Below, piece after piece: positions 2,788 through 5,831 of a stretch of DNA of 64,000 nt. How positions within the stretch are numbered: position 1 is the first letter of the stretch; every line of letters begins with the position of its first letter. Under the pieces are notes generated by a model that was not told where the DNA came from, did not search any database, and saw nothing but the letters and a program-made list of their open reading frames with translations. The stretch is from Candidatus Obscuribacter sp. (GTDB lineage: Bacteria; Cyanobacteriota; Vampirovibrionia; Obscuribacterales; Obscuribacteraceae), in contig JADKDV010000011.1 of assembly GCA_016718315.1 (NCBI GenBank), forward strand, positions 5,337 to 69,336. Reading direction: 5' to 3'. The position numbers and the translations under genes are program-made.

Positions 2788-3480
2788 ATGCCACTAATAG
2801 AACCGCCAGATCCGAATTGGAATGAACCAAAAATCGTGCACCAGTTATTGGTTCAAAAGCAGAGCCCCGCTTACAAGCAAATATTGGCGAGTAAGCATGA
2901 AGTTATAGGACCAGGGCCTTCAAACGCTAACTCTAGTCTAAGCGTCCACTTTACCTCTGTGCGACTGACAAAGTTGGATTCTCAAAAATATGATTATCTG
3001 CCTTTTACTTTTATGCAGCTGCCTCAGCCTGGCTGGTGGACTCGACGTCGTACCTTACCTGGCCATATTGACAGATATGAATTGAGATTATCGCCCAATC
3101 AAGATGCTGATACTATCCTCACCGTCCAAAGTGAAGGTGTGCCTTTCGTTGACGAGTATCCTATTTCTAAAATCTTAAAAGAACCACCGCACGCTCTTTC
3201 TTCACAGGAGAAGCATGCCCTTAAAATACGTGAAGTAGAGTCTGAGAAAAACTACACAGCATTACTGCAAGGTAAGCAGGTTTTGTGCTCAGAATCGACT
3301 GCAGATGGAAAAATGGAATACCATCTTTTGTTCAATCATAATCCTGATAGCTCAAGTCCATTCATTCCTGCTCAAATCACATTTGAAGCCAAGCCTGCTC
3401 AATACAAACGCTACATCCAGCAAATAAAAGCTTGCCTGCAAACAATCAATTGGAACGACAAAGTCACCATTGTGCCTTAG
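2788..3480 (+). CDS. Array paralog A1 (unknown-function family, C-terminus ...KVTIVP)
   Basis: ATG at 2788 lies 30 nt after the upstream stop, with AGGAG 8 nt upstream. The N-terminus is MPLIEPP. Shared family motifs are YLPxxxMxLPxxGWWT, ILKEPPH, FNHNPDSS and FEAKPAQYKRYIQQIKACLQTINWNDKVTIVP. No signal peptide or TM segment. Confidence 0.8.
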   Translation: MPLIEPPDPNWNEPKIVHQLLVQKQSPAYKQILASKHEVIGPGPSNANSSLSVHFTSVRLTKLDSQKYDYLPFTFMQLPQPGWWTRRRTLPGHIDRYELRLSPNQDADTILTVQSEGVPFVDEYPISKILKEPPHALSSQEKHALKIREVESEKNYTALLQGKQVLCSESTADGKMEYHLLFNHNPDSSSPFIPAQITFEAKPAQYKRYIQQIKACLQTINWNDKVTIVP

Positions 3481-3514
3481 ACAGTCTCCTATAGGTTTAG
3501 CGCTGGAGAAGTTT

Positions 3515-4162
3515 ATGCCTGTTGATATGCCACCATCTATCGTTGCCGCCAAACCAGCTGCGCATGTGCGAGCAACGATGACACGCGCAGTTACAGGAAA
3601 GGCGCCTACGTCGGGGGTTCCGTACAAGCGAATAAAGCTGCAATACTTGCCTGATGACAGGGTTTTTATACCGTACATCAAATATATGCGTCTACCCACG
3701 TCTGGTTGGTGGGTCACTGTGCCGGGATTTTTTATGCCTCCAAGTGGGCACAGTTACGATTTTGAGCCATGGGCTCGCTCCGATAATGACACGAGTCTGC
3801 ATATTTCGTGTGCAGGTCGCCGGCGAGTTGACGATGCTCCAATAACTGAGATCTTAAAGAAGGAACCGCATGAGTTGTCGCAGTCCGAGCGTGAACTTAT
3901 AGAGCCTGGAATGAATAAATCTGATAAGGTCTATACACGATTTCTTGACGGCAAGACTGTATTGGTCCAAGAATTTTGTTTGAACAACGAGAATAATTAC
4001 CAAGTTGAATTTAATGCTAATTCTAAAGGCTCTAAGATTGTGGTTCCTGCAACGATTACATTTCGCGCAAAGCCAGCCTCCTACAAGCTACACATCAAGC
4101 GAGTTAAAGCCAGCCTTGATACCATAAAGTGGAAAGACATTGAAATGTCTGGAGCGGATTGA
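3515..4162 (+). CDS. Array paralog B1 (same family, C-terminus ...IEMSGAD)
   Basis: ATG 3515 follows GGAGA. The N-terminus is MPVDMPP. Motifs: YLPxxxxxIPYIKYMRLPTSGWWVT, ILKKEPH, FNANS, AKPASYKLHIKRVKASLDTIKW. I prefer this start to the ORF-track start at 3470. Confidence 0.8.
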   Translation: MPVDMPPSIVAAKPAAHVRATMTRAVTGKAPTSGVPYKRIKLQYLPDDRVFIPYIKYMRLPTSGWWVTVPGFFMPPSGHSYDFEPWARSDNDTSLHISCAGRRRVDDAPITEILKKEPHELSQSERELIEPGMNKSDKVYTRFLDGKTVLVQEFCLNNENNYQVEFNANSKGSKIVVPATITFRAKPASYKLHIKRVKASLDTIKWKDIEMSGAD

Positions 4163-4199
4163 GCCCTAAGCCGCTTGTTGCCCACAATTGGAGTAGTTA

Positions 4200-4472
4200 A
4201 TGCCACCAGATGTACCGCCCGTATTTCTAAAGCAGCCATCAGTTGCGCATGTGATGTATCTGGTGGCAGATAGTCAGCTAATTTTCAAAAATTTGTCAGG
4301 TACGGCTAGGCAACCACACATCGGTCATGTCGGTATGCCAGACACGGATTTCGTTTCGCAAAGGAAGCTGAGTCTCTCCCGAGAAGAGTTTAAGTTTTTG
4401 CCGCTGCAATCTATAAAATTGCCAGCGTCCGGACTCTGGACTATGCCTCTGGTCTTTTTATTTTGGAGATAG
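4200..4472 (+). pseudogene. Array paralog C1, 3'-truncated remnant
   Basis: The first ~85 codons are about 88-90% nt-identical by eye to C2 (5869-), up to LPASGLWTMP. The sequence then diverges and stops, running straight into the RBS and start of A2. About 145 codons are missing relative to C2. Confidence 0.7.
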
Positions 4473-4474
4473 CT

Positions 4475-5149
4475 ATGCCAATCGACGTGCCACCTGCAAT
4501 TTATAGTTCTCAAAAACAGGTGATGATTCGCTATCTTGGCACCATGCCCAGAACTTCTCTAACTCAGAGAGTGGCTTTAGAACCCCCTCCATCTAAACCC
4601 CGCGACATTGGAGAGCCGTTTACATCTGAAAGAGTTAGAGCATTAAGGTGCCAAAAGTTTGTTTATTTACCTGTGCAAAAAATGAGTCTTCCTGCTCCTG
4701 GGTGGTGGACCCAGAGACCGTGGCGTCTGGCAAACGGAGACTCATATATGCTCACACTGTCTCCCGACAATGACAGATCTACAAAACTATGTTTTAGCTC
4801 TGATGGGGTGTTAGGAGATAAGAACAGCGGCTTAGGTGCTGCCCTTGATAAGTCACCGCACCTTCTTACTGAAAGTGAGAGAAAAGATTTTGATCCTCCA
4901 ATACTTAATAGCACAAAGGTTTACTCGCAAAAATTGAACGGCAAGATGGTGTTAGTTAGAGAGTCATTGGTTGATGGCAAAAAGTTGTATAGGCTCGCTT
5001 TTAATCACAATCCTGATAGCTCAAATCCATTCATTCCTGCTCAAATCACATTTGAGGCCAAGTCAGCTCAATACAAGCGGTACATCAATCAGATAAAAGC
5101 TTGCCTGCAAACAATCAGGTGGAACGACAAAGTCACCATTGTGCCTTAG
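4475..5149 (+). CDS. Array paralog A2
   Basis: ATG 4475 follows GGAGA. The N-terminus is MPIDVPP. The last ~60 codons are almost identical to A1 (FNHNPDSSNPFIPAQITFEAKSAQYKRYINQIKACLQTIRWNDKVTIVP), while the N-terminal two-thirds are strongly diverged. Confidence 0.8.
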   Translation: MPIDVPPAIYSSQKQVMIRYLGTMPRTSLTQRVALEPPPSKPRDIGEPFTSERVRALRCQKFVYLPVQKMSLPAPGWWTQRPWRLANGDSYMLTLSPDNDRSTKLCFSSDGVLGDKNSGLGAALDKSPHLLTESERKDFDPPILNSTKVYSQKLNGKMVLVRESLVDGKKLYRLAFNHNPDSSNPFIPAQITFEAKSAQYKRYINQIKACLQTIRWNDKVTIVP

Positions 5150-5183
5150 ACTGACTCCTATAGGTTTAGTTCTGGAGACGTTT

Positions 5184-5831
5184 ATGCCTTTTGATATGCC
5201 GCCAGTCTTCGTCGCCTCAAACCCACCTCATGGTGTCCCAGCGAAGATGACACATGCAATTGGCGCTAGGGCTGAAAGCCCCCAAGTCCCGTACAAACGT
5301 CTCAAGGTGGTCTATTTGCCCAATGAGAAAGTCCATATTCCGTTCATAAAGTATATACGACTACCTACACAAGGTTGGTGGGTTACGGTGCCAGGATTCT
5401 CTATTCCTCCGCGGGGATTTGAATACGAGTTTACGACCCGTGAAGGGGATGACGGAGACGCTAACTTAGAAATCGCTAGCGCCGCTCGCAGGTCAGTGGA
5501 TGACGATCCAATTATAGAAATCCTCCAAAAGCCTCCTCACGTGTTGACGCAGGCTGAGCGTGATCTGCTGGAGCCTAAAATGCCAGACTCGAAAAAATCT
5601 TACACTCAGTCTTTCTCTGGCAAAACAGCTTTGGTTGAAGAGTTTGTTTTAAACGGCAAGCAATTTTATCAAATGCAATTCAACGCAAATTCAAATAGTT
5701 CGAAAGTGATGGTCCCTGCGTCGATTGAGTTTAGTGCGAAGCCGTCTACATACAAGCTATATATCAAGCGAGTTAAAGCCTGCCTTGATACCATAAAATG
5801 GAATGACATTGAAATTTCTGGAGAGGATTAA
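5184..5831 (+). CDS. Array paralog B2
   Basis: ATG 5184 follows GGAGA. The N-terminus is MPFDMPP. It is colinear with B1 at roughly 60% aa identity by eye and ends IEISGED. Confidence 0.8.
   Translation: MPFDMPPVFVASNPPHGVPAKMTHAIGARAESPQVPYKRLKVVYLPNEKVHIPFIKYIRLPTQGWWVTVPGFSIPPRGFEYEFTTREGDDGDANLEIASAARRSVDDDPIIEILQKPPHVLTQAERDLLEPKMPDSKKSYTQSFSGKTALVEEFVLNGKQFYQMQFNANSNSSKVMVPASIEFSAKPSTYKLYIKRVKACLDTIKWNDIEISGED

Follow-up and report, generated by a model that had tools for sequence, protein, structure and literature searches.

A stretch of 64,000 nucleotides (nt) from a Candidatus Obscuribacter genome (positions 5,337 to 69,336 of contig JADKDV010000011.1, assembly GCA_016718315.1; hereafter "the window", whose coordinates are used unless another locus is named) carries a gene for an 847-amino-acid (aa) protein, followed by a tandem array of paralogous genes for proteins of ~225 aa, with all genes of the locus on the plus strand. 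Neighboring array copies are nearly identical over some segments and strongly diverged over others, and the locus thus raises the question of how this mosaic came about and what the array proteins do. Our analysis indicates that the mosaic was almost certainly caused by recombination. In addition, we think it likely, with some reservation, that the locus as a whole is a new toxin-immunity family with the recombination behavior of the esaG and tipC arrays of Firmicutes. The source genome (G000) is metagenome-assembled (6.09 Mb in 16 contigs) and comes from a lineage of the Melainabacteria. It was compared with loci of related strains (L002, L003, L004, and L006, supplemented by L007 and the population variant L012), and two further loci of the source genome itself were included (L010, and L001 upstream of the window on the same contig).

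The array starts directly 3′ of the gene for the 847-aa protein with unit 1, which consists of A1 (2788-3480, 230 aa), B1 (3515-4162, 215 aa), and a C1 fragment (4200-4472) that is truncated after ~83 codons and whose homology to C2 stops at ~4447. Unit 2 follows with A2 (4475-5149, 224 aa), B2 (5184-5831, 215 aa), and C2 (5869-6564, 231 aa), and the array continues with D (6566-7246, 226 aa) and a frameshifted pseudogene, E (7467-8142). BLASTN recovers a single co-linear duplicate of the two units (3331-4447 against 5000-6116, 76% identity over 1122 nt). When the units were aligned without gaps at an offset of +1669 nt, and blocks were delimited by sliding-window identity and max-chi-square segmentation with permutation, divergence proved non-uniform along the genes, with four blocks separated by breakpoints at 3331, 3532, and 4082 (permutation p ≤ 0.002 for each). 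The A bodies (2938-3330) share 45.5% identity and the B cores (3532-4081) 60.7%. Identity rises to 90.5% in the first junction block (3331-3531 against 5000-5200), which spans the A tail from the motif FNHNPD onward, the stop codon, a spacer of 34 nt that contains GGAG, and the first 17 nt of B1, and to 89.4% in the second (4082-4440 against 5751-6109), which spans ~80 nt of the B1 tail, the spacer, and ~240 nt of the C1 head.

These measurements agree in most respects with a preliminary description of the sequence, which had contrasted a near-identical A tail and junction with a diverged 5′ part; the strings that it quoted match exactly at 3334-3390 and 5003-5059. Its estimate of ~60% protein identity between B1 and B2 compares with 58% measured, and the ~90% nucleotide identity that it gave for the 5′ halves of C1 and C2 was borne out (80.5% identity between the C1 fragment and C2 as proteins). 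The A bodies, which it called barely alignable, are so as DNA but not as protein, since a gap-free protein alignment is obtained from about codon 50; A1 and A2 share 46% protein identity overall, with the tail supplying most of it.

To see whether the blocks share one history, we turn to synonymous divergence, estimated by the Nei-Gojobori method in sliding windows. For A1/A2 and B1/B2, the proportion of synonymous differences (pS) in the A bodies and B cores is 0.7-0.9, i.e., saturated (~0.8 in the B core), while the synonymous distance (dS) in the A tail of the first junction block is 0.24-0.40. The cores are thus saturated at synonymous sites, whereas dS in the junction blocks is no more than 0.1-0.4; the blocks therefore differ in ancestry, which argues for recombination. 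The same contrast appears among seven A, D, and E genes from the source genome and strain L002, in which A-type tails are 0.30-0.36 apart at synonymous sites, compared with 0.62-0.86 for their bodies. In the pairwise homoplasy index (PHI) test (our own implementation, 1000 permutations), the signal was significant (p ≤ 0.001) whether the test was run on all 23 genes together, on the A/D/E group, or on the B group.

Segment-wise nearest neighbors identify individual chimeras. The second array gene of L006 (s6_2) joins a B1 head and first core segment (88% and 95% identity) to a B2 second core segment and tail (96% and 88%), the fifth (s6_5) joins an E head to the body of the first array gene of L004 (s4_1, 99%), and a gene of L002 (rEA, 3018-3689) joins an E head to an A-like body. 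The genes of the window show comparable relationships at the nucleotide level: the A2 body is 88-94% identical to L004 gene s4_3 while its tail is closer to A1 (91% versus 83%), B2 is 95-97% identical to L002 1195-1842, C2 is 89-100% identical to L006 gene s6_3, and D is 94-99% identical to L006 gene s6_4. Between D and its L002 counterpart, the tail has a dS of 0.61 and the body a dS of 0.09, which points to a recent tail replacement between these two strains. The preliminary description had proposed gene conversion homogenizing a constant C-terminal module. The recombination component of that proposal stands, given the dS contrast, the PHI results, the chimeras, and the D tail swap. Simple homogenization inside one genome does not, because the A-type tails of both genomes are all ~10% apart and the D and E tails are saturated relative to those of A. 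As such, recombination in this family is a reshuffling of segments (tail, core, and head) among strains and paralogues that goes beyond simple within-genome homogenization.

The most probable mechanism starts from three stretches that are conserved in every copy: the MPxDxPP-encoding 5′ head, the 3′ module that extends from FNHNPD to the last β-strand and the C-terminal helix, and the short spacer into the next gene. Purifying selection would keep these stretches alike and so provide homology arms at which homologous recombination cuts, whether by unequal crossover, by conversion, or by exchange with the DNA of other strains. The expected outcome would be old and very different cores flanked by young junctions of ~90% identity, and the same recombination would also have generated duplications (B1-C1 and B2-C2), truncations (the C1 fragment and a B-type fragment, B3f, described below), fusions, and chimeras.

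What the array may be for depends first on the protein encoded upstream of it. In the 847-aa protein (214-2757), residues 1-470 (nt 214-1623) are 85-100% identical to the homologues P0120-P0125, while residues 480-847 are 30-60% identical; the hypervariable C-terminal domain begins at about residue 480 (nt 1651-2757). Residues Q470, C476, H719, and D736 are invariant in 14 homologues, with the papain-type Q-x5-C spacing. The protein has no match in Pfam, NCBIfam, or PADLOC, and its profile has no sequence match in the PDB. A confident AlphaFold2 model of it (AF2; predicted local distance difference test score, pLDDT, 86.5) was used to search for structural relatives of the toxin-like domain with Foldseek, and the top matches are all papain-like (Alr0975 phytochelatin synthase-like, GtgE, SpvD, NEDP1, and CHAP). 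On this evidence, the best reading is that of a putative polymorphic toxin with a conserved N-terminal part and an exchangeable papain-like cysteine-peptidase domain at its C terminus. A second variable patch was observed at residues ~281-360 of the otherwise conserved, Pro-rich N-terminal half, where identity is 10-32% to P0122, P0124, and P0125 and 82-97% to P0120, P0121, and P0123.

The array proteins likewise lack matches in Pfam (even at E ≤ 10), NCBIfam, PADLOC, and PDB sequences. In the AF2 model of A2 (pLDDT 75.8), residues 1-47 are disordered and are followed by an α/β domain, for which the best Foldseek matches are PsbP/CyanoP, DcrB, DUF1795/SciW, and MTC28 (E = 5e-4 to 0.05). The best matches reach an E value of 5e-4 and a probability of 1.00, with template modeling (TM) scores of 0.42 (query) and 0.56-0.60 (target) and root mean square deviations of 5.8-7.7 Å. 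In this model, the constant 3′ module takes up the NHNPDSS loop, the last strand (188-196), and the C-terminal helix (197-211), and it is thus predicted to belong to a single fold rather than to form a separate domain. A specificity-determining variable part combined with a constant part, as the preliminary description had suggested, remains plausible, as the first array gene covaries with the toxin C-terminal domain (see below). The array proteins are most likely paralogous cytoplasmic partners of the toxin with a PsbP/DcrB/DUF1795-like fold, acting as specific immunity (inhibitor) proteins. A1, as the gene next to the toxin, would be the cognate immunity gene, and the other copies would be orphan or retired immunity genes against the toxin variants of other strains.

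The link between toxin and partner is suggested by several observations. First, across six strains, the identity of the toxin C-terminal domains correlates with the identity of the first downstream genes (r = 0.97, exact Mantel p = 0.0028); one of the toxins, P0122, was confirmed as that of L002. Second, an A1-like gene of L002 is directly preceded by 30 codons left over from the 3′ end of a toxin gene (83% identity to the toxin end of the window); the window's own array contains no such remnant. Together, the orphan tip and the covariation fit the cassette-replacement logic described for polymorphic toxins (PMC3482391). Third, a 3050-aa RHS-repeat protein (L010 2853-12005; G000 contig 2, ~706.8-716.5 kb), which has an RHS_repeat match in Pfam and also an annexin match, ends in the same papain-like domain (hhalign 99.7%) with the Q/C/H/D motif present. 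The next gene (L010 12002-12517), whose start overlaps the stop of the RHS-repeat gene, encodes a 171-aa array-family protein (96.9% match) that lacks the disordered head. Fourth, P0073 (1060 aa, from a public protein library) contains a papain-like domain and then an array-family domain at residues 826-1057, as either a natural toxin-partner fusion or a gene-calling read-through. From these comparisons, we infer that the 847-aa protein would have protease activity, be toxic, and be exported, and that the array proteins would neutralize it.

Several results weigh against a recombining toxin-immunity locus. The Foldseek matches of the toxin domain are weak (best E value 0.58, TM score to target ≤ 0.37), the N-terminal 470 residues contain no secretion or trafficking domain in Pfam or NCBIfam, no signal peptide was found in the toxin or the array proteins, and TssC/VipB, the sheath of the type VI secretion system (T6SS), was not found in the genome. 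The covariation of the C-terminal domain with the first gene may partly reflect linkage of adjacent DNA, not functional coevolution. The PHI test gives no more than a modest signal (p = 0.03) when it is confined to the six intact genes of the window.

The results on export would suit an intracellular protease with an inhibitor, chaperone, or antitoxin, i.e., a toxin-antitoxin-like or anti-phage module in a defense island, in which the array proteins would regulate or escort the protease and recombination would still explain the mosaic. Such a module would have no need of an export signal, a known trafficking domain, or a T6SS, and it would be at home among the defense and toxin-antitoxin genes nearby: AbiE in the window, HigB in L002, a FokI-like nuclease and a helicase in L003, and a DNA methylase, an HNH protein, and HipA in L004. 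The resemblance of the array fold to DUF1795/Eag chaperones (SciW) and the existence of the fused protease-partner protein P0073 point in the same direction. However, the proteins of the locus have no PADLOC match, and the part of the toxin with which the partner covaries is the variable C-terminal domain rather than the conserved N terminus, where an Eag-type chaperone would bind. Moreover, the same papain-like domain caps a giant RHS-repeat protein, an architecture typical of exported toxins, and orphan toxin-tip remnants together with strings of retired partners fit cassette replacement in polymorphic toxins. We consequently regard an intracellular module as unlikely, and a toxin-immunity function as reasonably probable on the sequence evidence.

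The second alternative concerns the mosaic and dispenses with recombination: an A-B-C triplet would have been duplicated once, after which the cores diversified quickly while purifying selection held the tail and junction together. One part of it is sound. Between the D or E tails and those of A, synonymous sites are saturated (pS 0.5-0.88) and the peptide is nearly unchanged (proportion of nonsynonymous differences, pN, 0.12-0.20), and the tail peptide is therefore under strong purifying selection. By contrast, diversifying selection on the N-terminal and central region, which the preliminary description had offered as a cause of their divergence, is not what we observe: in the array-gene bodies of close orthologues, where dS is unsaturated, the ratio of nonsynonymous to synonymous distances (dN/dS) is 0.10-0.43, and we reject diversifying selection as the cause of core divergence. 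Nor would selection on the tail peptide account for the several-fold synonymous differences between blocks of one gene pair, or for the conservation of sequences outside intact genes. The noncoding spacers are also ~90% identical, and so is the truncated C1 head, which evolves neutrally (dN 0.10, dS 0.10, dN/dS ~1 against C2), as expected from its truncation. In addition, every core has a counterpart of 90-99% identity elsewhere, in other strains and at other array positions, and the PHI tests and chimeras indicate recombination. The dS contrast and the chimeras led us to reject one recent duplication of the triplet as the only cause, and the wider account without recombination is already largely refuted; we give it very little credence. 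The tail data instead indicate two joint forces: the tail peptide is held constant by purifying selection, and tail "alleles" are exchanged.

Finally, an assembly artefact, in which a metagenome-assembled genome would have joined strains at repeats (related strains with different arrays do co-occur in public samples), is barely credible, since at least 16 contigs, assembled from several independent samples, show the same gene order (products of 847, 230, 215, 90, 224, 215, 231, and 230 aa), and the repeated blocks are just ~90% identical, not the long exact repeats that mislead assemblers.

Arrays of related strains are consistent with recurrent rearrangement of the locus. They hold 1 to ~10 genes at the same chromosomal site and show gene fusions, one of them a C+F gene of 425 aa, as well as deletions and an insertion sequence (IS) insertion. 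The last was seen in one population variant (L012 8092-9470), where an IS element with an rve-type transposase cuts D after 109 codons. The order B-C-D-(B fragment)-E is common to the window, L006, and L002, which suggests that two arrays, toxin-A1-B1-C1... and ...A2-B2-C2-D-E, were joined in the window, with the junction inside C1. B2 is the orthologue of the first (cognate-position) gene of L002. The B fragment in the window (B3f, 7284-7436) is a B-type 3′ fragment, i.e., a deletion remnant, 79% identical to 4010-4160, and the same remnant occurs at L002 2772-2987. The E pseudogene is split over three open reading frames with two internal TAA stops and has an intact orthologue at L002 3909-4589. 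A B-type 5′ scrap (8239-8293, 85% identical to 3533-3586) marks the broken end of the array, just before an AbiEi/AbiEii pair identified by Pfam matches (8404-10094), which lies between the array end and a minus-strand gene for an M10-like metalloprotease. The AbiE pair is absent at that position in L002, L004, and L006 and thus looks like an insertion into the array end.

Beyond these strains, the family is sparse. Of 41 relatives, 7 carry it, most of them as a single distant copy, and it was found neither in five other species of the same genus nor in a 300-genome sample of the phylum. In distant relatives, single toxin-partner pairs occur in unrelated genomic contexts, a further link between the two families.

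Array genes start at the ATG of the head encoding MPxDxPP, are separated by spacers of 1-37 nt, and have GGAG ahead of the ATG. This head, encoded by the first seven codons, is invariant in all array copies of the window (2788-8142), while the ~40 residues that follow are disordered and variable; some distant homologues (P0097 and P0030) share it. It could be a short functional motif, for example a pseudo-substrate or a targeting signal. The RHS-linked 171-aa copy lacks it, and the head is dispensable there. A promoter and terminator scan of 1-10300 revealed no excess of sites and no plus-strand terminator within the array, which is compatible with a single operon, and it yielded no regulatory reason for the conserved junctions.

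Some neighboring genes were noted in passing. A TPR-rich protein of 1424 or 1444 aa lies inside or right after the array in L002 (5541-9815) and L007 (11362-15696) and is absent from the window; the L002 copy has an N-terminal signal-like sequence by reading of the translation alone. Upstream of the window's toxin, motifs recognized by eye suggest an FtsK/SpoIIIE-type ATPase fragment at the contig start (L001 1-540) and, less than 5 kb from the toxin (L001 1348-3327), a STAND-like NTPase/TPR gene pair and an LRR protein.

To our knowledge, inter-bacterial conflict systems are hardly known in the Candidatus Obscuribacter lineage. The locus adds an undescribed pair, a papain-like C-terminal domain and a partner of PsbP-like fold, neither of which is in Pfam, NCBIfam, or PADLOC. 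Since it combines one toxin family, one partner family, and natural chimeras, it would be a convenient system for mapping the immunity specificity region. A bolder proposal, which we advance tentatively and consider rather doubtful, is that the head, tail, and spacer blocks might form a built-in cassette-exchange scaffold in these non-photosynthetic relatives of cyanobacteria. Reassortment of head, first core segment, second core segment, and tail would then create new functional immunity specificities against a co-diversifying protease toxin of a single family, with a new export route, and chimeras such as s6_2 would be functional intermediates, not debris.

How, then, does the locus compare with known systems? 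By fold, the array proteins approach the PsbP, CyanoP, DcrB, and DUF1795 (SciW) group, to which the A2 model has TM scores of 0.45-0.60 (target), but they do not match the corresponding Pfam families (PF01789 and PF08786), have no signal peptide, and covary with the toxin tip, while Eag chaperones bind N-terminal transmembrane segments. By gene arrangement, they recall the staphopain-staphostatin operon, in which a small, specific, cytoplasmic, β-rich inhibitor is encoded directly downstream of a papain-like protease and co-transcribed with it. Staphostatins are single genes with a lipocalin-like barrel, and there is neither a polymorphic C terminus nor an array.

A parallel in predicted function is Cpe1-Cpi1, in which a papain-like cysteine protease serves as a toxin between bacteria and is matched by a dedicated immunity protein (PMC12136450). 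Cpe1 is tied to delivery by T6SS or contact-dependent inhibition, which was not seen here, and its abstract mentions no array of paralogous immunity genes. Both systems pair a papain-like cysteine protease, a predicted one in the present case, with a partner protein, and no homology was detected between them.

Polymorphic toxins, which include systems with papain-like toxin domains at the C terminus, offer a further parallel, as strings of immunity genes 3′ of toxins have been explained by cassette replacement (Zhang et al. 2012, PMC3482391). Like them, the locus joins a conserved N terminus to a swappable C-terminal domain and has an immunity-like gene directly 3′; the source genome also encodes a version with RHS repeats, and the arrays include an orphaned toxin tip next to its partner as well as series of retired partners. 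It differs in that the domain matches no scanned Pfam toxin model and the partner no Pfam Imm family, in that no trafficking domain was identified, and in that one toxin family is paired with one partner family instead of mixed, unrelated cassettes.

The nearest match in behavior is provided by the esaG and tipC arrays of Firmicutes, which consist of immunity paralogues of type VII secretion system (T7SS) toxins (esaG against the nuclease EsaD, tipC against TelC) and in which recombination between homology blocks, one of them composed of the gene end and the intergenic region, leads to chimeras, losses, expansions, and pseudogenes (Garrett et al. 2022, PMC9484751). The array described here likewise is a string of non-identical paralogues 3′ of a putative polymorphic toxin, with conserved blocks that include the 3′ end and intergenic region, and with chimeras, losses, expansions, and pseudogenes. 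Its behavior alone is similar: the proteins have no Pfam match to DUF600/EsaG or TipC, the phylum is another one, no T7SS context was seen at the locus, and the toxin is a predicted papain-like peptidase, not a nuclease or lipid II phosphatase. Recombination at conserved gene ends was thus already known in toxin-immunity arrays; what is new here is the family pair and the lineage, and the recombination-driven evolution of tandem immunity paralogues would accordingly extend beyond the T7SS loci of Firmicutes.

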